The notes: a model not told the origin generated them from the letters alone. Numbered from the stretch's first letter, positions 4,267 to 60,077 are shown. The stretch is DNA of 64,000 nucleotides from Clostridia bacterium (GCA_045649825.1 JAZRQO010000021.1:6388-70387); one strand, 5' to 3'. Program-made: numbers and translations.

Positions 4267-5664
4267 ATGGAAAATAATTTCGGACTCCGCGACAAACTGG
4301 GTTATATGCTGGGAGACCTTGCAAATGATTTTTTCTTCATCTTTGCAAGCTCTTTTCTAATGGTTTTTTATACCAACGTTTTGGGCATTGCACCGGGGGT
4401 TGTGGGAACTCTGTTTGTTACGGCTAGAGTTATTGATGCTTTTACAGACATTGCTATGGGACGAATTGTGGATATCACACCCGCCCGTAAAAACGGAAAA
4501 TTCAAACCATGGATAAAGGTAATGTCAATCCCCGTGTGTATTGCAGGATTTCTTCTGTTTGTACCGCAAGTTGCCTCCCTACCTATGCCATACAGGATTG
4601 CATATATATTTATAACTTATATTCTATGGGGCAGTATATTCTACACTTCAATCAACATCCCCTACGGGTCAATGGCATCTGCAATAACAGGCGACCCCGG
4701 TGAGCGAGGTCAGCTCTCCACATTCAGAAGTGTTGGTGCGGCTTTGGCAGGAGCCACAATAAGTGTTACCGTACCCCTTATAGTTTACAAATATGATGCT
4801 GCAGGAAATCAAATTATACTTCCCTATAGATTTCAGTTTATTGCTATATCCTTTGCAATCCTTGCATTTATCTGTTACAGACTATGCTACAGTCTGTGCC
4901 ATGAACGTATTGTTATTGAAAACAAGCAACGGGAAAAAACCAGTATACGAAGCACATTAGGAAGCGTTTTTTCGTCAAGGAGCCTTTTGTGCATTATAGC
5001 AGCAGCTGTGATACTTCTACTATCTATGCTCCTCGCCCAGTCCCTTAACATATATTTGTTTATGGACTATTTCAAAAACAACACCGCTATGTCTGTGGCA
5101 GGTTTTCTGAACACTGCCGCAACACTTATACTTGCCCCGTTTACGAAAACAATTATAAAAAATGTAGGCAAAAAGGAAGCTTCTTCAATCGCTCTTCTTT
5201 TTGCTTCGGCAGTTTACTTCTTTGTTCATTTTTCGAGAATAACAAGCCCCTGGATTTTCTGCATATTTGTAGCTCTCGGCAATCTGGGAACAGGAACATT
5301 CAACCTTATGATCTGGGCGTTTATAACTGATATAATTGACAACCGCGAAGTACAAACCGGAACACGTGATGACGGAACAATATATGCATTTTATTCTTTC
5401 GCCCGTAAAATCGGACAGGCTTTAGCAGGTGGACTTGGCGCTTGGGCGCTTGAAATTGTGGGCTATAAAACAGCAGTAGCCGGAGAAACAGTAGTGCAGG
5501 CAACAGAGGTGGTTGAAAAAATATACTCCGTTGCAACCTTAACGCCTGCAATATGCTACCTTGCAGTGGGACTTATACTCACTTTCGGATATCCGCTAAC
5601 AAAGAAAAAAGTGCAAGAGAACTCAAAGATACTTGCAAGTAAGAGAAACAAAAAAATCCTCTGA
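4267..5664 (+). CDS. Glycoside-pentoside-hexuronide (GPH) family transporter, probable glucuronide permease
   Basis: Polytopic membrane protein of 465 aa with a GPH/MFS-like N-terminus (LGYMLGDLANDFFF...). It starts immediately downstream of uidA. Confidence 0.75.
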   Translation: MENNFGLRDKLGYMLGDLANDFFFIFASSFLMVFYTNVLGIAPGVVGTLFVTARVIDAFTDIAMGRIVDITPARKNGKFKPWIKVMSIPVCIAGFLLFVPQVASLPMPYRIAYIFITYILWGSIFYTSINIPYGSMASAITGDPGERGQLSTFRSVGAALAGATISVTVPLIVYKYDAAGNQIILPYRFQFIAISFAILAFICYRLCYSLCHERIVIENKQREKTSIRSTLGSVFSSRSLLCIIAAAVILLLSMLLAQSLNIYLFMDYFKNNTAMSVAGFLNTAATLILAPFTKTIIKNVGKKEASSIALLFASAVYFFVHFSRITSPWIFCIFVALGNLGTGTFNLMIWAFITDIIDNREVQTGTRDDGTIYAFYSFARKIGQALAGGLGAWALEIVGYKTAVAGETVVQATEVVEKIYSVATLTPAICYLAVGLILTFGYPLTKKKVQENSKILASKRNKKIL

Positions 5665-5678
5665 CGAGGATTTTTTTG
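5650..5678. terminator. Bidirectional intrinsic terminator between convergent genes
   Basis: A-run, then stem ATCCTC (5656-5661), loop TGAC, stem GAGGAT (5666-5671), then T-run. Confidence 0.7.
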
Positions 5679-5682
5679 TTTC

Positions 5683-7695
5683 TTATTCAGGGAAGCCTTC
5701 CGGCACTAGCTGCGTCCATATATTGGGGGCGCCAAGGTTTGGTGTTTTGTCCCAACCTATATATTTTCCGTAAAACTCATTACTTCTGTTTTCTTCATCA
5801 AACAAATCGTTATACTGAAGATTCTCGTATCGGTTTATCCACTCTGCTTCTATACCTGTTGCTTCGCTGTATTTTGCAAATCCGTTTTTTGAAATTGAAT
5901 AATAACCCATAGCATTCATAGCAGGAATAACTCTTTCAAGTGATGATAAAAAGCTATGGTATGACGGCATTTCAATGCCTGCAACTTCAAGCAATCTGCT
6001 TGATAGGAAGTTTAGACTTGTACACTCCACCGTATCCTCAGGTATGTCATAATTTGCCCATATGAAGAATGGAACCTTATATTTCAACATCTGTTGGTCG
6101 AGTGTTTCAAAGGGGCCGCCGTGAAGCTCGTCATAAAACTCAGTTTCTATTTTCGGGAAATGGTCGCCAAAGAACAAAACGATAGTATCTTCGGGATAGT
6201 TCTCAAGCTCCGTAAGGAGATACTCCACTGCCGAGTCCGTTTCCTTTATAACAGAAAAATACTGTTCGGCTTTTGGGTATTCACGGCTGTAACCTTCAAG
6301 CTCTACGGTTTGAATATAGTTTTCACCTTCATAGGTGTATCCGCCGTGGTTTTGCATTGTTACGCCAAAGAGAAACATGGGTTTGTCCTTTTCTTTGGTT
6401 TGGAACTTATTCATTACATACTCAAACATTTCGCGGTCGCTTACATATTTACGAAGCATGTTAAAGCCGGGATAGCTATCTATAAAAGTACTTTCGGAAA
6501 ATCCCATTTTAGGATACAGTGTATCCCTTGACCATCCGTCTGCATAGTAAGGGTGAGTTGCTATGCTTTTATATCCGTAATAATTAAGAAGCCATGCGAG
6601 AGTATATATTTCCCCGCCTATATGCTGCTGATAGGGCACTGAGTTTTCGGGGAGAAACGCCATGGAATGACCTGTCAGCACTTCAAATTCAGAGTTGGCA
6701 GTATTAGCTCCGTATACTGAGGCCAGAGCATAGCCTCTTATTGTGTTCTCACGAAGTGAATCCATAAAGGGGGTTATGGGAATATTTGAGGTTATTTCTT
6801 TATTTCCGATTACACGGAAATCTGCAAAGGATTCATCCATAATAATTATAATATTGGGAAGGTCCTCAGATTTTATATTCACAGGCTCGTATTCGTTTTC
6901 ATAAACCTGTATGGTATGGGGTCCGTAATTGTCAGGCTCATTGATAAACGAATCTCTCACGCCCATAAAAAAGTTAAGGAAGTAGCCGTTCTTTTCAGTA
7001 CCCTGAGTTTCCCACATTTTTATAGGTACATTTATTGTTCCTACCCAGATTATCATAAAATATACGATAGCCAAAGTAAGTGATGTAAGACGCGCTCTCT
7101 TATTCGGGAGCTTTGGAAGCTTTGGAATAAACGTATGCGCAAAAGCCGCAATGCCCCACAAAAGCCATGAAAATACCATTCCCGATGTTAAATTAAGTTC
7201 ATACTGGCCTGCAACATTAAAAGCCGTGCCGATGGATGCAAAATCCATTGGTCCGAGTTCTTTACCACGGAACTGATATATAAATCCGTTTGCCATACAC
7301 AAGAATGCAAGAGCAAAGGTTGTTACCACATTTGAAAGCTTCCATCTTGCAGTAAAGGCAAAAACAACATTTACAAGCATATACACGCAAAGAAGATTGA
7401 GAAAGGTTTTATACGGACCTACCTGATGGAGATTTCCCGAACAAAGCATACTAACAGTAATGCAAAATGTTATGGACACCAAAGCTATGCTCCACACATA
7501 GTTAAGCATAAAGCGTGCAATTCTCGGGAGTTTTTTTAGCTTAAAACAACCAACTCCCACAAACAGAATAGCAAATATAATTCCTGTATACCAGTTAATC
7601 CGCCACCAGCCTGCAACTAATGCAACTGCCGCAAGTATAATACCGATTATTCTGTTTTTCTCATCAAATGTAAGCAAAGATTTCAGTTTGTTCAT
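5683..7695 (-). CDS. LTA synthase (LtaS) / sulfatase-family membrane protein
   Basis: The N-terminal part has multiple predicted TM segments. The C-terminal part is an extracellular sulfatase-type domain (IIIIMDESFADF, FFGDHFP). Confidence 0.75.
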   Translation of the reverse strand: MNKLKSLLTFDEKNRIIGIILAAVALVAGWWRINWYTGIIFAILFVGVGCFKLKKLPRIARFMLNYVWSIALVSITFCITVSMLCSGNLHQVGPYKTFLNLLCVYMLVNVVFAFTARWKLSNVVTTFALAFLCMANGFIYQFRGKELGPMDFASIGTAFNVAGQYELNLTSGMVFSWLLWGIAAFAHTFIPKLPKLPNKRARLTSLTLAIVYFMIIWVGTINVPIKMWETQGTEKNGYFLNFFMGVRDSFINEPDNYGPHTIQVYENEYEPVNIKSEDLPNIIIIMDESFADFRVIGNKEITSNIPITPFMDSLRENTIRGYALASVYGANTANSEFEVLTGHSMAFLPENSVPYQQHIGGEIYTLAWLLNYYGYKSIATHPYYADGWSRDTLYPKMGFSESTFIDSYPGFNMLRKYVSDREMFEYVMNKFQTKEKDKPMFLFGVTMQNHGGYTYEGENYIQTVELEGYSREYPKAEQYFSVIKETDSAVEYLLTELENYPEDTIVLFFGDHFPKIETEFYDELHGGPFETLDQQMLKYKVPFFIWANYDIPEDTVECTSLNFLSSRLLEVAGIEMPSYHSFLSSLERVIPAMNAMGYYSISKNGFAKYSEATGIEAEWINRYENLQYNDLFDEENRSNEFYGKYIGWDKTPNLGAPNIWTQLVPEGFPE

Positions 7696-7770: not shown

Positions 7771-8838
7771 TCAGAATTCACCGCTTACAATTTTGTCTAC
7801 AAATTCCTCTATTCGCTTTTCACGGGGCGGAATGCGTGCATCTATCCAATGCTGACGTGATAAATAATATAAAAATGCCGGTCTCAGTTCTTCGCCGTCC
7901 ATACGGAGAGGATGGTATCGTATTCCTCGATAAAGCTCCTTAAATGCCAAATCCACCTCGTTTAAAACGTGCTCCGACTGCATACTGTTATGACTTATTA
8001 TTACTATGAAATGACTGCACCTTTCAATGGCCTTTACTATGGAAGTGGCGTAGTCATTTTCATTCACATTTCTGGGAGCATACCAGACCCTTTTACCCGA
8101 TGCTTCAAGCTTTGCACAGATACTGTCAGCAATGCTTTTATCTGTTGTTGTATAGCTTATAAAAACCAAATCGGCAGAATCATTAGGATGCCCACTATAC
8201 GATAGTTTCTCTTTATGTAACGTATATGAATTTTCAAGTGCCATTGCTATTTTAAATGCATTGCTCTGATTATAGTCAACAAAATTAAACCTTTTTATAT
8301 TTTCATTGGTTTTTAAAAATTCGATACATTCATTGATTATGGGTATAATCGTAATCTCAGGTGAAATTCCCTGACATCCCGCACCTATAAGAGGCATTAC
8401 TACCGACTCGACCTTTATTCCGCTTAAAGAAATCAAACCAAGAAATTTAAAGTAAGCCTTTATCAATGCCAGAATTTCTTTTTCACGATTGCAAGGTTCT
8501 GTATCACACTCATGGCTCATTTCAACACAGGCAATATGCCCCACAGGCAGTGGAGAACTCTTTATTTCTTGCGAAAGCCATAGGTTGCACGTATCTCTCA
8601 AATCAATTTTCGGAACATCTGCCAGAGCTTCTACGTCTATCCCCACAAGGTCAAGTGCTTCGAACATAGTACCGGGAGTGGGTGCATATCCGCCCACAAA
8701 GGCTGAAACAGTAAGAATATCCGTCTGTTCGGGGAAATCCAAAATATTGCAGGAATAAACAGATATTGTTTTCTCACCGTATTTTGTTTGTATATTTACC
8801 GAATGCATAGGATTCACTCTATCACCGCCTCTCCTCAT
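7771..8838 (-). CDS. Macro-like domain / TIR domain fusion protein
   Basis: The C-terminus (approx nt 7834-8172) reads DLVFISYTTTDKSIADSICAKLEASGKRVWYAPRNV...FIVIISHNSMQSEHVLNEVDLAF...HWIDA, a typical bacterial TIR_2 pattern with a candidate catalytic Glu (NE). The N-terminus (approx nt 8224-8772) has macro-like motifs: NILDF..TDILTVSAFVGGY.PTPGTMFEAL and VVMPLIGAGCQGISPE. The start is ambiguous among 8889, 8838 and 8808. I chose 8838, which lies 20 nt after the upstream gene's stop. Confidence 0.75.
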   Translation of the reverse strand: MRRGGDRVNPMHSVNIQTKYGEKTISVYSCNILDFPEQTDILTVSAFVGGYAPTPGTMFEALDLVGIDVEALADVPKIDLRDTCNLWLSQEIKSSPLPVGHIACVEMSHECDTEPCNREKEILALIKAYFKFLGLISLSGIKVESVVMPLIGAGCQGISPEITIIPIINECIEFLKTNENIKRFNFVDYNQSNAFKIAMALENSYTLHKEKLSYSGHPNDSADLVFISYTTTDKSIADSICAKLEASGKRVWYAPRNVNENDYATSIVKAIERCSHFIVIISHNSMQSEHVLNEVDLAFKELYRGIRYHPLRMDGEELRPAFLYYLSRQHWIDARIPPREKRIEEFVDKIVSGEF

Positions 8839-8857
8839 AAGCGTATCTATTGCCCTT

Positions 8858-9235
8858 CTATTCGCCGAGCACAGCTTTAACAAAATCAATTACAATATTT
8901 GCACTGTATACAACTCCCCTTGCTTTACACTCTTCTATTCGGGATGAATGTACCAGTGAGTTTCTTAAACTTCGTATTATATTTATTTCATGACTTATGT
9001 CTGAAGGCAAAGGGGAGTCAGGACCTGCACAAAAGCTCATCACCTTTTGAGGCATCTGACCTGATTTGTAAACTGTACCTCTTATGACTTTATATCCTTT
9101 GTTTATAAGAAACAGTTCCAAAGCTTTTTCGCAAATCATATATACATCTAAAAATGCATTCAGACCCGATTCATCAATACACTGAAGCTTTGACGATAAT
9201 CCCTTTATTGCATCTGCAGCTTCCATATCCTTCAC
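8858..9235 (-). CDS. Small HEPN-superfamily protein (Rx4H motif)
   Basis: The 125-aa protein looks all-helical by composition. It contains IIRSLRNSLVHSS (R91-x4-H96, nt 8948-8965) near the C-terminal helix, as in HEPN/DUF4145-type domains. An AGGAG RBS precedes the ATG. Confidence 0.6.
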   Translation of the reverse strand: MKDMEAADAIKGLSSKLQCIDESGLNAFLDVYMICEKALELFLINKGYKVIRGTVYKSGQMPQKVMSFCAGPDSPLPSDISHEINIIRSLRNSLVHSSRIEECKARGVVYSANIVIDFVKAVLGE

Positions 9236-9271
9236 TCCTATTACAAAGTAAGTAATTTTACAGATATCAAA

Positions 9272-9300
9272 ATTATATCACATTTATATGCTAGTGTCAA
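9272..9300 (-). promoter_or_regulatory. Sigma-A type promoter for the HEPN-TIR cassette
   Basis: The minus strand reads TTGACA (9300-9295), a 17-nt spacer, then TGA-TATAAT (9277-9272), i.e. an extended -10. Confidence 0.65.
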
Positions 9301-9345
9301 ATTTTGTTTTTTTATGTAAATGAAGCTATCATTTTACTAATAGCA

Positions 9346-10707
9346 TTAATTATCATATTGAAGCAGTGCGACTGCTTCGACGTGCACTGTATTCGGGAAC
9401 ATATCAACCGCAGTTACTTTGTCAAGCTTATATCCGCCTTGATTTAGGATTTTTATATCTCTTGCTAAAGTGGCGGGGTTGCAGGATACGTAGACTATTC
9501 TTTTGGGATTTGCAGAGATTATTGTATTGAGAGTGATTTCGTCGCTTCCCTTTCTTGGCGGGTCGATTATAACTATATCGGGTTTTTCGCCGCCTTGAAT
9601 CAACTGAGGTACGATTTTTTCTGCACTTCCTGCATAGAATTCTGCATTTGTAATACCATTGGCTTTGGCATTTTTCTTTGCATCCGCAATTGCCCGGTCT
9701 ACTATTTCAACACCGATTACTTTTTTTGCTTTTTTCGCGGCAGTAAGAGAGATTGTTCCAATTCCGCAGTAAATATCCATTACTGTGTCGGTGTCGCTTA
9801 TATCTGCATATTCTATGGCTTTATTATACAAATTCTCCGTTTGCTCGGGATTTACCTGAAAAAAGCTGTTTGGAGATATTTCGTATTCGCATCCGCAAAG
9901 CGTGTCGGAAATAAATAATTTCCCGAAAACTGTTCGGTTATTGGGACCGAGAACAAGGTTTGTTCTGTCGGGGTTTATGTTAAGAATTATGCTTACAACA
10001 GAACCATCGGCTTGTATAATCTTATCTGCCAATGCTTTTTCATTGGGGAGTGATGAGGTTTTTGAAGATACAACAACCATTGTTTCCCCTGAAAATCTGC
10101 CACGGCGTATGAATATACGGCGCACCGCTCCCTTATGAGCTTCTTCATCATAAGGTTTTACCCTGTTTTCGTTCATATATTCAAGGACTGCATTTATTAT
10201 TTTACCGTCATCACCCATACCGAGCATACATCCGTTTAAAGGAATAATACTGTGGCTTCTCGGTGCATAGAACCCGCAAACCACAGTGCCTGACTTGTCC
10301 GCACCAACAGGATATACCATTTTATTGCGGTATCCCATATCACAGAGAGCAGGAATTAATGATACTTCTGTATCAGGGCTTTGATTTCCAAGTCTGACAA
10401 GGGCGTCGTATACGAATTTTCTCTTGATTTCGCACTGAGCATCATAATTAATATGCATAAGCTGACAGCCACCGCACTTTTTGTACGCAGAACACTCAGG
10501 CACTCTACGGCTCTCGGATGAACTGATGATATTAAGACATTTACCATATGCATATGCAGATTTCACCTTGACTATCAAGGCCTCAATAACATCTCCCTTA
10601 GCCGTAAATGGCACAAAAACAGTCAGACCGTCGTGACGTCCGACGCCCATACCTTCATTTGTTACATCTACGATTTCAAGAGTTACCTTATCATTTTTCT
10701 TAATCAT
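9346..10707 (-). CDS. rlmD: 23S rRNA (uracil-C5)-methyltransferase, RlmD/RumA family
   Basis: TRAM-like N-terminus, a Cys cluster (CxxxxxxCGGC) and a SAM-MTase core (DIYCGIGTISL, IIDPPRKG). Confidence 0.85.
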   Translation of the reverse strand: MIKKNDKVTLEIVDVTNEGMGVGRHDGLTVFVPFTAKGDVIEALIVKVKSAYAYGKCLNIISSSESRRVPECSAYKKCGGCQLMHINYDAQCEIKRKFVYDALVRLGNQSPDTEVSLIPALCDMGYRNKMVYPVGADKSGTVVCGFYAPRSHSIIPLNGCMLGMGDDGKIINAVLEYMNENRVKPYDEEAHKGAVRRIFIRRGRFSGETMVVVSSKTSSLPNEKALADKIIQADGSVVSIILNINPDRTNLVLGPNNRTVFGKLFISDTLCGCEYEISPNSFFQVNPEQTENLYNKAIEYADISDTDTVMDIYCGIGTISLTAAKKAKKVIGVEIVDRAIADAKKNAKANGITNAEFYAGSAEKIVPQLIQGGEKPDIVIIDPPRKGSDEITLNTIISANPKRIVYVSCNPATLARDIKILNQGGYKLDKVTAVDMFPNTVHVEAVALLQYDN

Positions 10708-10772
10708 AATACTTCCTTTAAATAGCATTTTTTAGTGCAAAAGGCGAATGCCTAAGCATCCGCCATTTAATA

Positions 10773-11573
10773 TTAGTCGTTTTCGTGCTCTGCGAGGTAT
10801 TCCTCAAAGCTGCTTACTTTAGCCTTTTCAACACGTCCTCCGCCGGGATATGTTGTGGGTAAATCCTCATCAACAGGATAGTTATACTCTTTCTTGGGAG
10901 CAGGCTTCTTGCTGTAGGAAGGTCTGCGTCTTTCATTCTTGGGAGCAATAACTACCTTACGGTAAGGTTCTTCGCCAACCGAGAATGTTGTCACATCTTC
11001 ATTTGACTGAAGATTTGCATGAATAATTCTTCTTTCATAGGGGTTCATAGGCTCAAGTGTATACTTTTTACCTGTGCGTGCAACCTTATTTGCAAGTCTT
11101 TCAGAAAGAGCCTTGAGAGATTCCTCTCTCTTCTGTCTGTAACCTTCAGTATCGATAGTTACTCTTGTGTAATCATCTCTTGATTTACCTTTGTTTGCAA
11201 CAAGTGATGTAAGATACTGCAAGCTGTCGAGAGTATCGCCTCTTTTACCTATTACAATTCCCATATCCGAGCCTTCGAGCTGGATGTTGAGGTTGCCTTC
11301 ATCCTCAGTTGATGTAATTTCAACCTGCATACCCATTGCCTCAAAAACGTCTGCAAGGAACTTCTCTGCAACATTTCCGTTGTCTGCTGCACCAAGGAGT
11401 TCTACCTCGATTACTGCGTCTTTTGAACCAAGGCCGAGAAAGCCCTTTGATGCTTCTTCCAATACTGTATATTTTACTTCATTTTCAGAAACGCCAAGCT
11501 CTTCAAGAGCGAGGGTAAGTGCTTCTTCAATGCTTTTTGCGCTTTTTGTTATTTTTTTCGGGGAGTTTGACAT
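10773..11573 (-). CDS. jag: RNA-binding protein Jag/KhpB (Jag_N-KH-R3H)
   Basis: KSIEEALTLALEELGVSENEV at the N-terminus and an R3H-type C-terminus (ERRIIHANL). It overlaps the 3' end of yidC. Confidence 0.85.
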   Translation of the reverse strand: MSNSPKKITKSAKSIEEALTLALEELGVSENEVKYTVLEEASKGFLGLGSKDAVIEVELLGAADNGNVAEKFLADVFEAMGMQVEITSTEDEGNLNIQLEGSDMGIVIGKRGDTLDSLQYLTSLVANKGKSRDDYTRVTIDTEGYRQKREESLKALSERLANKVARTGKKYTLEPMNPYERRIIHANLQSNEDVTTFSVGEEPYRKVVIAPKNERRRPSYSKKPAPKKEYNYPVDEDLPTTYPGGGRVEKAKVSSFEEYLAEHEND

Positions 11574-12477
11574 CAAAATCGTCACCTTTCTTATCAAAGT
11601 AATAATTGAGTGCTACCTGCTGAACAAACTGCATAACACTGCTGATTATCCAGTAAAGTCCCATACCTGAGGGAAGAATGAATGTAAAATAACCTGTCAT
11701 AATAGGCATAATAATATTCATCGAGCTGGTCATCTGCTGTGCTTGTTCGTTTGCCGCACTATTGGCTGATTTGTTCTGGCCCTGCATATACTTTGAACTG
11801 AGCCATGTTGTGAGAACTGCCAATACAGGGATAAGTATAAGTAACACTATGCTGAGATTGCTGAAATCACCGTTCATAATAGGTGATATTGCAGCTGAGG
11901 GCTTCTGAGAAAGGTCAAGACCAAGAAAATCGAAGTTAAGCACCCAGTCAAGCTGTTCGCCAAGCGCTGAACACCATTTTGAAAGAGTTATCTGCCCCAT
12001 CTTGATAATATTTGAAGGCTCTGCTCCTGCATATTCACCAAGGAGTGCGGGGAATGTTTCCGCAATCTTATCTCTCAAAGTAGCCACAATCTGAAGCTTG
12101 TCCTCGCTCCAGTCGGTTACACCGGCAATGTATGTGATAGGTCGCTGAATTACGTGATAAAGACCGATGAGTATAGGCATCTGTATAAGCATAGGAAGGC
12201 ATCCGCCTGCCATACTCACATTGTTTTCTTTATATACCTTCATCATCTCTCGCTGAAGCTTTTCTTTATCGTTTGCATACTTTGCCTGAAGCTGTGCAAT
12301 GATAGGCTGAATTTTCTGCTGCTTTCTCATTGCTTTCTGTGATTTAATATTGAGGGGTAATAATATAAGCTTAACCACTATGGTAAAAAGTATAATTGCA
12401 AGGCCGTAGTTCTGCACAAGCTCATAAATAAACCCAATAATAAATCCAAGAGGTCTTTTAATCAAAAATTCGTACAT
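11527..12477 (-). CDS. yidC: Membrane protein insertase YidC/SpoIIIJ
   Basis: YidC/Oxa1 core motifs (GCLPMLIQMPI, GMGLYW) and a lysine-rich C-terminal tail. Confidence 0.9.
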   Translation of the reverse strand: MYEFLIKRPLGFIIGFIYELVQNYGLAIILFTIVVKLILLPLNIKSQKAMRKQQKIQPIIAQLQAKYANDKEKLQREMMKVYKENNVSMAGGCLPMLIQMPILIGLYHVIQRPITYIAGVTDWSEDKLQIVATLRDKIAETFPALLGEYAGAEPSNIIKMGQITLSKWCSALGEQLDWVLNFDFLGLDLSQKPSAAISPIMNGDFSNLSIVLLILIPVLAVLTTWLSSKYMQGQNKSANSAANEQAQQMTSSMNIIMPIMTGYFTFILPSGMGLYWIISSVMQFVQQVALNYYFDKKGDDFDVKLPEKNNKKRKKH

Positions 12478-60048: not shown

Positions 60049-60077
60049 ATTATATCAAAACACCCACGCTATGTCAA
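60049..60077 (-). promoter_or_regulatory. Consensus sigma-A promoter of the MBOAT-DHHW operon
   Basis: The minus strand reads TTGACA (60077-60072), 17 nt, then TGA-TATAAT (60054-60049). Confidence 0.65.

Follow-up and report, generated by a model that had tools for sequence, protein, structure and literature searches.

A Macro–TIR fusion gene and its HEPN-like neighbour beside rlmD in a Clostridia bacterium: a candidate self-contained NADase effector

The gene pair and its setting in the window

We analysed a 64,000-nucleotide stretch of the genome of a Clostridia bacterium (GCA_045649825.1 JAZRQO010000021.1:6388-70387; hereafter the window), in which two neighbouring genes and their promoter, at positions 7,771 to 9,300, had been singled out by an earlier reading of the sequence alone (the sequence-only reading). 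That reading described them as a compact cassette of a HEPN gene (gene 1) and a gene with macro-like and TIR parts (gene 2), and as a candidate NAD+/ADP-ribose-linked defence system. We found that gene 2 encodes a C-terminal TIR domain fused to an N-terminal domain with a Macro fold in its structural model (hereafter Macro–TIR). The family comprises at least 357 full-length homologues with 44-60% identity, and its gene is normally a stand-alone unit, which gene 1 accompanies in the lineage of the window and in one other. The explanation that we favour, and that we judge about equally likely to hold or to fail, is that Macro–TIR would be a self-contained, ligand-regulated NAD+ glycohydrolase (NADase) serving as a defence effector, with gene 1 as a lineage-specific HEPN-like accessory.

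Both open reading frames (ORFs) lie on the minus strand, and the two genes are co-directional, as had been read. Gene 1 had been listed at 8858-9235 with a GTG start, giving 125 amino acids (aa). The ATG at 9226, giving 122 aa, is the better start because the sequence AGGAG sits 8 nucleotides (nt) before it and because the database calls of a 98%-identical protein are 122 aa long. For gene 2, the start at 8838 chosen previously gives 355 aa, and a GTG at 8817 gives 348 aa. We preferred the GTG because the N-termini of the family align there and because the orthologue on contig L141 has an ATG at this position; the database gene calls for gene 2 are also 348 aa. The genes had been placed at most 20 nt apart or overlapping. 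They are indeed adjacent, but the GTG start leaves 40 nt between them.

The promoter proposed in front of the pair was borne out by a complete match of both hexamers to the consensus (Table 1). The exact pattern TTGACA-N14-TGnTATAAT occurred twice in the 64 kb and in none of 100 shuffles. The site at 9300-9272 lies approximately 45 nt upstream of the gene 1 ATG. The other perfect site in the window is at 60049-60077 on the minus strand, and there are no further ones. No terminator-like site was detected from the promoter to the end of gene 2, nor between gene 2 and the LtaS-like gene, which is co-directional and starts 75 nt downstream. The first strong hairpin past the promoter, at 5644-5683, lies between the convergent genes for a major facilitator superfamily (MFS) transporter and the LtaS-like protein and probably acts as a terminator in both directions. 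In that case a single transcript from the promoter at 9300 could span gene 1, gene 2 and the LtaS-like gene, and the LtaS-like gene is possibly co-transcribed with gene 2. An LtaS-like gene was found beside Macro–TIR in no other locus surveyed.

The order on the minus strand is yidC, jag, rlmD-family gene, gene 1, gene 2 and LtaS-like gene. Pfam matches on the closely related loci L001-L003 identified the rlmD-family and LtaS-like flanks. The description of the pair as an insert among housekeeping genes stood. These three relatives (98-99% identical) all carry the cassette, and there were no other close relatives; the nearest RlmD in a metagenome scan was 46% identical, so that no closer locus could show an empty rlmD–ltaS site. 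The GC content shows a slight dip only across the cassette, no direct repeats bracketing it were found, and no Rfam family matched there.

Table 1. Features of the Macro–TIR locus and its surroundings (window coordinates)
Feature	Coordinates	Strand	Basis or remark
yidC	11527-12477	-	First gene of the minus-strand order
jag	10773-11597	-	Between yidC and the rlmD-family gene
rlmD-family gene (TRAM and U5 RNA methyltransferase)	9346..10728	-	Pfam TRAM/tRNA_U5-meth_tr (precomputed) on L001-L003
Sigma-70-type promoter, TTGACA-17 nt-TATAAT with TG extended -10	9272..9300	-	12/12 hexamer match
Gene 1, 122 aa, helical, HEPN-like (unproven)	8858..9226	-	ORF and AGGAG-8 nt-ATG start
R88-N89-S-L-V-H93 codons, Rx4H motif of gene 1	8948..8965	-	Read off the sequence
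Gene 2, 348-aa Macro–TIR fusion, GTG start, stop codon counted in	7771..8817	-	
N-terminal divergent Macro-fold domain of gene 2, aa 1-205	8203..8817	-	AlphaFold2 model and Foldseek
C-terminal TIR domain of gene 2, aa about 215-348	7774..8175	-	Pfam TIR_2
Glu287 codon, HVLNE motif, catalytic position of TIR NADases	7957..7959	-	57-sequence alignment
LtaS-like sulfatase-family membrane protein	5683..7695	-	PF00884 (Sulfatase) on L001-L003
Perfect 18-bp inverted repeat (I3), 4-nt loop, 100% complementary	5644..5683	.	Terminator-like hairpin

Domains of the Macro–TIR protein and of gene 1

Homologues of gene 2 are currently annotated as 'toll/interleukin-1 receptor domain-containing protein' or 'hypothetical'. 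The C-terminal TIR domain that had been read in gene 2 was confirmed by Pfam PF13676 TIR_2 (E=6.2e-20, with 72.4 bits where the cut-off is 28, over aa 225-337 in the 355-aa form). Across 57 aligned homologues, E287 of the motif H-V-L-N-E287, which is the glutamate that had been picked out as a point-mutant target, was invariant (57/57), as was a block FxS...WY...R. In a HMMER alignment to TLR1, E287 falls on the conserved glutamate of the S-x-W-C-x-x-E-L helix of TIR domains. This alpha-C helix carries the catalytic glutamate in NADase TIRs. Sequence matches of the TIR part in the PDB included TLR1, TIR-STING and Cat1, with SpbK at E=0.01. Among PADLOC models, the TIR part matched SAVED_TIR (1e-8) and pAgo-associated TIR (4e-7), and matched ThsB at 2.8e-4 or weaker. 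The SAVED_TIR model aligned via the TIR part alone (aa 220-299), and likewise only the TIR part was matched by model PDC-S66. From the alignments we infer that the TIR domain of gene 2 is an NAD+ glycohydrolase with Glu287 as its catalytic residue.

An AlphaFold2 (AF2) model of gene 2 built on the 57-sequence alignment had a mean predicted local distance difference test score (pLDDT) of 90.7, and its N-terminal half contained the three-layer alpha/beta/alpha macro fold. A Foldseek search with this half retrieved macroH2A1.1, the MacroD of Oceanobacillus (OiMacroD), YmdB of E. coli, MacroD2 and PARP14. The scores for solved macro domains were high (target template modelling score 0.62-0.76, probability 1.00, E down to 7e-10), and the matched structures included ADP-ribose (ADPR)-complexed macroH2A1.1 (3iif) and PARP14 macro 2 (3q71). 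At the sequence level, the threshold of Pfam Macro PF01661 was not reached (E=0.035-0.079; 13.4-14.5 bits against a cut-off of 22), nor was that of PF20016 ThsA_Macro, whose best match, in 1 of 20 family members, had E=0.081. Thus, of the macro-like N-terminus that had been claimed, the fold stood and the usual sequence motifs did not.

The only Macro motif recognisable in the sequence is the second phosphate-binding (diphosphate) loop. Here the family profile matched a PARP14 macro domain (E=1.5e-4), and loop 2, P142-x-x-G145-x-G147, is invariant in the family and aligns to 'AIPAISSG'/'AFPAIGTG' of PARP14. In the alignment of the 57 homologues, the NAAN motif is replaced by T-x-S38-A-F and the GGG motif by R/G-S/G-Y44-x-P46-T-P. 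Invariant polar residues of the domain are K16, D33, S38, Y44, D72, R74, W80, S82, C97, E99, Q149 and E163. Going by the model, the N-terminus of gene 2 is a highly divergent Macro subfamily, and it may well bind a ligand of the ADP-ribose type. Because the NAAN and GGG motifs are absent, the case for ADP-ribose binding is drawn from the fold and one loop only. We also found a 214-aa protein (P0129, on a contig of 2740 nt) that is 46% identical to the N-terminal half of the Macro–TIR of the window and stops where the linker to the TIR domain would start; this may be a truncated gene or a version of the Macro module that stands alone.

When plasmids were searched with tblastn, the Macro part (aa 16-150) matched in megaplasmids of Ralstonia solanacearum. 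In the 396-aa protein BCL95478.1 the Macro module is N-terminal (pairwise E=6e-13; hhalign 97.3%, E=2e-11) and shares with gene 2 the motifs DxLxVS, GxYxP(T/S)PG, W(L/I)S and MPL(I/V)xxG, and the C-terminus is an ADP-ribosyltransferase (PF03496, E=5.5e-6). The gene upstream codes for 299 aa and carries the module at its C-terminal end, as a paralogous copy. The operon (L143:4010-7980, which is 2057974-2061944 of megaplasmid AP024100.1) also encodes a DUF6508 protein and a metallophosphoesterase with an ASMase_C domain, and adjoins a very large hypothetical protein, which the locus edge cuts off and for which the record coordinates give about 2,650 aa. The Ralstonia gene or operon is kept in 133 Ralstonia megaplasmids, in most of which the records annotate it as hypothetical.

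BCL95478.1 thus resembles gene 2 in having the same divergent Macro module, likewise fused to an NAD+-consuming domain, and differs in that its C-terminal enzyme is an ADP-ribosyltransferase rather than a TIR domain and in that it belongs to a multi-gene operon. That two unrelated NAD+-consuming enzymes carry the module is an argument for its acting on, or sensing, ADP-ribose chemistry rather than a phage protein, and suggests a reusable regulatory part for such enzymes. A more far-reaching idea is that the module would serve NAD+-consuming enzymes in general as a reader or eraser built into them: Macro–TIR would read its own product or carry out two steps on NAD-capped or ADP-ribosylated RNA, and the HEPN-like RNase and rlmD would belong to an RNA-directed pathway. 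We consider this very unlikely. If true, reading its own product would make Macro–TIR a one-protein feed-forward switch.

Gene 1 had no match in Pfam (E<=10), PADLOC or NCBIfam. A word-indexed search of 5.8 billion proteins returned a copy of gene 1 (P0121, 98% identical) alone. An exhaustive phmmer search of 1.84 billion representatives returned one real distant relative, P0130 (125 aa, 34% identical, E=8.7e-8); a 1437-aa hit (P0131) was discounted as repetitive sequence. In the alignment, gene 1 and P0130 have a similar ORF length, a similar hydrophobic pattern and L-R-x-L-R88-N89-x-x-x-H93 in common, with R88, N89 and H93 invariant (LRTLRNIFAH in P0130). P0130 matched Pfam PF18735 HEPN_RiboL-PSP over residues 23-117 (E=0.0015, 18.9 bits against a cut-off of 28.4), and neither gene 1 nor P0130 reached the threshold of a HEPN profile. 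A single-sequence AF2 model of gene 1 was helical with the motif at a helix junction; it is a weak model (pLDDT 55), and Foldseek returned nothing significant with it. A profile of gene 1 and P0130 had no match in the PDB, and no homologue of gene 1 was found in IMG/VR.

Gene 1 resembles the HEPN superfamily in its helical character, its length of about 120 aa and its R-N-x3-H motif, in which a polar residue follows the arginine as in many HEPN families, and in that its relative matches PF18735 over 95 residues, below the gathering score. For the Rx4H HEPN protein that had been proposed, therefore, the motif RNSLVH is real and its R, N and H are kept in P0130, but a HEPN fold was not demonstrated by the weak model and the sub-threshold profile. 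That gene 1 encodes a HEPN protein is plausible but unproven. As for HEPN–MNT toxin-antitoxin pairs, no minimal nucleotidyltransferase (MNT) adjoins gene 1, whose neighbours are rlmD and Macro–TIR.

Distribution of Macro–TIR and its genomic surroundings

To survey the family we used approximately 50 independent loci with full-length members (42-60% identity), taken from one-genome-per-species contigs and contig look-ups. The hosts were rumen and gut Clostridia (Oscillospiraceae, Ruminococcus, Lachnospiraceae, Acutalibacteraceae and others), Solobacterium (Erysipelotrichales), Coriobacteriaceae and Atopobiaceae (Coriobacteriia) and an actinobacterium. The family thus crosses phyla, which fits horizontal spread of an accessory gene.

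No conserved partner of Macro–TIR was found: when the neighbouring ORFs of these loci were clustered, almost no cluster was common to non-duplicate loci. The gene directly upstream varied (GNAT acetyltransferases, RecX-like, RpiR-like and PHP-domain proteins), and many loci had opposite-strand genes on both sides and look monocistronic. GNAT was considered as a conserved partner and rejected, as its 4-5 loci are about the chance level for so common a family. Neither tblastn nor a maximum-sensitivity hidden Markov model (HMM) search found a gene 1 homologue in the other loci, and an HMM of gene 1 and P0130 run against all ORFs of 60 loci found nothing beyond P0130. As a rule, then, Macro–TIR stands by itself.

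The second lineage with the pair is represented by L141, a 2-kb contig, in which P0130 directly follows a TRAM/RlmD gene and the start of a Macro–TIR gene follows 36 nt on. The downstream ORF begins MKPMHSVAIPTQFGEKTISVYSC, and 18 of its first 23 residues match the Macro–TIR of the window. The RlmD proteins of the two loci are 46% identical. The same gene order despite this divergence indicates that the pair persisted over a long time or moved as a unit, and the pairing looks functional within a small subclade. The sequence-only reading had presented HEPN and Macro–TIR as a two-gene system and had asked for linkage of the genes across taxa. Gene 1 stood beside Macro–TIR only in the window lineage and L141, and this part of the reading was not upheld. 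In L142, which encodes the closest full-length relative of gene 2 (P0002, 60% identical), the Macro–TIR start shares 4 nt with the stop of an ORF upstream (L142:1-144); on this short contig the visible 47 C-terminal residues of that ORF show no resemblance to gene 1.

Two explanations of the pair bear on these results. In one, gene 1 has nothing to do with gene 2, being separate cargo at a hot spot or an inconsequential, fast-evolving ORF, and Macro–TIR acts alone. The solitary state of Macro–TIR in nearly all loci speaks for it, as do the lack of any protein family model matching gene 1 and the presence of other genes in the slot between rlmD and Macro–TIR in three lineages: a 131-aa ORF without a Pfam match (L004), a class-I methyltransferase (L005), and a membrane ORF with a GNAT gene (L012). 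Set against this are the length (122 and 125 aa), hydrophobic pattern and LRxLRNxxxH motif that survive at 34% identity, the position of P0130 directly before Macro–TIR as well, and the consensus promoter of the window, which serves gene 1 first. We regard this explanation as unlikely.

The other explanation takes the opposite course and makes the pair a system of the Thoeris type, in which TIR would sense infection and make an ADPR-derived signal, and a HEPN RNase would execute abortive infection. One promoter precedes both genes with no terminator between them across the 40-nt gap, their order is kept in the second lineage beside an RlmD with 46% identity, and the Rx4H motif is kept together with the weak HEPN_RiboL-PSP match of P0130. 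Further, the Thoeris types described of late are numerous and their effectors varied, predicted RNases among them (bioRxiv 10.64898/2025.12.03.692087). Yet gene 1 is missing from the approximately 50 other Macro–TIR loci and has two relatives in 1.84 billion representatives, and the TIR domain is nearer to effector-type models than to those of ThsB. The TIR protein itself bears the sole sensor-type domain, the Macro, and its partner, at 122 aa, is too small for a signal-binding domain, so that the Thoeris-like division of labour suggested at first does not fit. On balance, such a two-gene system seems highly improbable to us. Under the explanation that we prefer, gene 1 would be an accessory to a Macro–TIR that normally works without it.

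In 6 lineages (the window, L141, L004, L144, L005/L014 and L012) Macro–TIR has an rlmD-family gene 1-2 genes upstream of it; in L021 such a gene lies 4.6 kb away. In a metagenome-assembled genome (L144:3620-6062), Macro–TIR and the 3' end of the TRAM/RlmD gene share 23 nt, with uvrA-recG-prsA lying upstream; this suggests co-transcription with rlmD there. The contexts farther upstream all differ (rnpA-yidC-jag; yabP-yqfD-phoH-ybeY-dgkA; uvrA-recG-prsA; a two-component system; rnf), and in a rough neighbour-joining tree the rlmD-linked TIR proteins form no single clade.

We also examined 80 metagenomic RlmD loci (L061-L140; RlmD 40-46% identical), and none carried Macro–TIR. Their upstream genes were conserved in large blocks, and the downstream genes differed even with the same upstream block. 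The sampled cargo after rlmD comprised a C5 DNA methylase, a GmrSD type IV restriction enzyme with DUF4268, an SNF2/ResIII helicase, DUF4304, a DcuA/B transporter, a YadA-type adhesin and several ORFs without a Pfam match. Most simply, the stretch that follows rlmD would be a hypervariable site for cargo in gut Clostridia, with the cassette as one such cargo; the interval concerned in the window is 9236-9345. Shared ancestry as the cause of the rlmD linkage was set aside because the TIR proteins are not monophyletic and the farther-upstream contexts differ; we tentatively attribute the linkage mainly to the hot spot, although a functional tie to rlmD is conceivable. The rlmD 3' flank could help to locate further defence genes in Clostridia.

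The proximity of rlmD also bears on a third explanation, that Macro–TIR is a two-step enzyme. Here TIR would strip nicotinamide from NAD+ or NAD-capped RNA or would transfer ADP-ribose, and Macro would process or reverse the product in cis; the role would be in RNA or ADP-ribosyl metabolism or in the self-limiting control of a toxin, maybe tied to rlmD and the HEPN-like RNase. TIR proteins leave (cyclic) ADPR-RNA from NAD-capped RNA, and a second enzyme is then needed (PMC10937652). The dense invariant polar residues of the Macro module agree with this proposal, and the module on the Ralstonia ADP-ribosyltransferase could be a built-in eraser. Recurrent rlmD-family genes upstream, the 23-nt overlap in L144 and the largely housekeeping neighbourhoods point the same way. 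However, the residues of MacroD-type hydrolases (the Asn of NAAN and the GGG loop) are absent from the Macro domain of gene 2, 0 of 80 RlmD loci carry Macro–TIR, a general cargo site explains the adjacency without a functional tie, and a distribution that is patchy and crosses phyla is not what a housekeeping role would give. We hold the two-step enzyme to be decidedly unlikely and continue with Macro–TIR as a regulated effector.

For signs of defence islands we surveyed the neighbours of 44 family members up to two genes away, 141 proteins in all. The commonest neighbouring Pfam family was another TIR_2 protein (5/141), and there were scattered PADLOC matches to IetA, DolB, AriA, AbiO, Nhi, AbiEi, mad3/mad8 and PDC-S09. 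The neighbourhood in L008:1469-9266 appears defence-island-like: Macro–TIR is surrounded by genes for an alpha/beta hydrolase, a Nudix protein, a Sel1-repeat protein, a MazG-like protein, a helicase of the SLFN-group-3 type (with a faint nSTAND3 match) and a metallo-beta-lactamase protein with a weak match to Anti-Pycsar Apyc1. Unrelated TIR proteins lie within a few kb of Macro–TIR in L010, L036:4919-6704, L047:2259-4619, L049:2449-5961 and L033; they include ORFs of 787 and 1171 aa, and in L010:718-5349 a 740-aa TIR-WD40 protein preceded by an 801-aa protein without a Pfam match. The presence of further TIR proteins in several loci indicates that TIR genes tend to cluster. Enrichment in defence islands, one of the checks proposed with the sequence-only reading, thus came out mixed: defence matches are scattered near the family, but most of the 141 neighbours are housekeeping genes, and the signal, though present, is modest. 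The 64-kb window contained no further recognisable defence system. Macro–TIR had no matches in IMG/VR viral contigs; a phage genome database gave one TIR-only match (30% identity), and plasmids gave the Ralstonia Macro module only.

Proposed mode of action and comparison with known systems

In the mechanism that we propose for Macro–TIR, the Macro domain would be a built-in regulator that binds an ADP-ribose-containing or NAD-derived ligand, and the ligand-bound Macro would release or promote the self-association of TIR that activity needs. Upon infection or another trigger, TIR would deplete NAD+ or make a further harmful product, and the infection would be aborted. Candidate triggers are an ADP-ribosyl product made by a phage, ADPR from another NADase, and the signal of a TIR protein encoded elsewhere. 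Gene 1, expressed from the same strong promoter, may be a second (RNase) effector or a modulator of Macro–TIR and is probably a minimal HEPN. The logic would be that of TIR-SAVED, TIR-STING and CARF-TIR (Cat1), with Macro as the sensor and without an adjacent dedicated synthase.

Several points weigh against this interpretation. The genes around the family are mostly ordinary metabolic or housekeeping genes, and a signal-producing enzyme was not found in the 64-kb window. The Macro domain is missing the usual NAAN and GGG motifs, and its dense invariant polar residues would equally suit a catalytic site. The HEPN status of gene 1 comes down to a motif and one sub-threshold match, and the activity of the Macro–TIR family is a prediction throughout. 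Further, a perfect consensus promoter before a potentially toxic NADase would require tight post-translational autoinhibition.

TIR enzymes are central to the immunity of bacteria, plants and animals, and how they are activated is the main open point for each new type. If the proposed mechanism is true, the ligand-gated TIR effectors would gain a new class of sensor through several hundred stand-alone Macro–TIR proteins from anaerobes of the gut and rumen, and the question raised is which ADP-ribose-type molecule triggers an effector without a dedicated signal synthase. No paper on 'Macro-TIR', 'TIR-Macro' or similar was found in the literature searched, a search that did not extend to the 2015 survey of Burroughs et al. 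in NAR. A systematic survey of TIR signalling from 2025 states that stand-alone TIR proteins were discarded (bioRxiv 10.64898/2025.12.03.692087). As far as checked, then, the Macro–TIR architecture is unreported in the literature searched and its logic was foreseeable; the domain logic is what specialists would expect.

The pair had been described as unlike any named system, and the database searches agree: no system model of PADLOC, NCBIfam or Pfam matched it. Assignment to a named defence system was accordingly rejected, the searches having given domain-level TIR matches for gene 2 and nothing for gene 1. Type II Thoeris also uses TIR and Macro in the same NAD+/ADPR chemistry, and its Macro is a signal receptor (for His-ADPR). 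In contrast to gene 2, which is a fusion without a transmembrane segment, the Macro and TIR of Thoeris are on two proteins and its Macro protein has a transmembrane killing part; no PADLOC ThsA model matched gene 2. Membership in Thoeris is further disfavoured by the lack of a conserved operon of TIR and sensing effector in the approximately 50 loci and by ThsB model matches of 2.8e-4 or worse.

SpbK and other stand-alone TIR proteins resemble Macro–TIR as single-gene TIR NADases with a non-TIR N-terminus and the logic of abortive infection. The N-terminal part of SpbK reportedly recognises the phage protein YonE. SpbK had no match outside its TIR region, whereas the N-terminus of gene 2 is a nucleotide-binding fold. 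Among animal proteins, SARM1 is a TIR NADase restrained by a domain that reads NAD-related metabolites (PMC11204291). It is thus alike in placing a TIR NADase under a metabolite-reading regulatory domain, and differs in its ARM regulation and SAM-domain octamerisation and in having no homology to gene 2 beyond TIR.

The closest counterparts are the ligand-gated TIR effectors TIR-SAVED, TIR-STING (of CBASS) and Cat1. They differ from gene 2, in which the sensor would be a divergent Macro fold, and no cyclase or CRISPR locus lies nearby. No SAVED, STING, CARF or cNMP (cyclic nucleotide monophosphate) sensor was detected in gene 2, and no cyclase or Cas10 gene was found in the 64-kb window or the surveyed neighbourhoods; gene 2 was therefore not assigned to CBASS, Pycsar or type III CRISPR systems. 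As in gene 2, a small-molecule-sensor N-terminus and a TIR domain with a catalytic glutamate are joined in one polypeptide in these effectors; SAVED_TIR was the best PADLOC match, and TIR-STING and Cat1 were among the best PDB matches. Further, a stand-alone TIR-SAVED effector works without a cyclase of its own by reading a second messenger of the host (bioRxiv 10.1101/2025.06.19.660554), which sets a direct precedent for effectors that lack a synthase of their own, as Macro–TIR may do.

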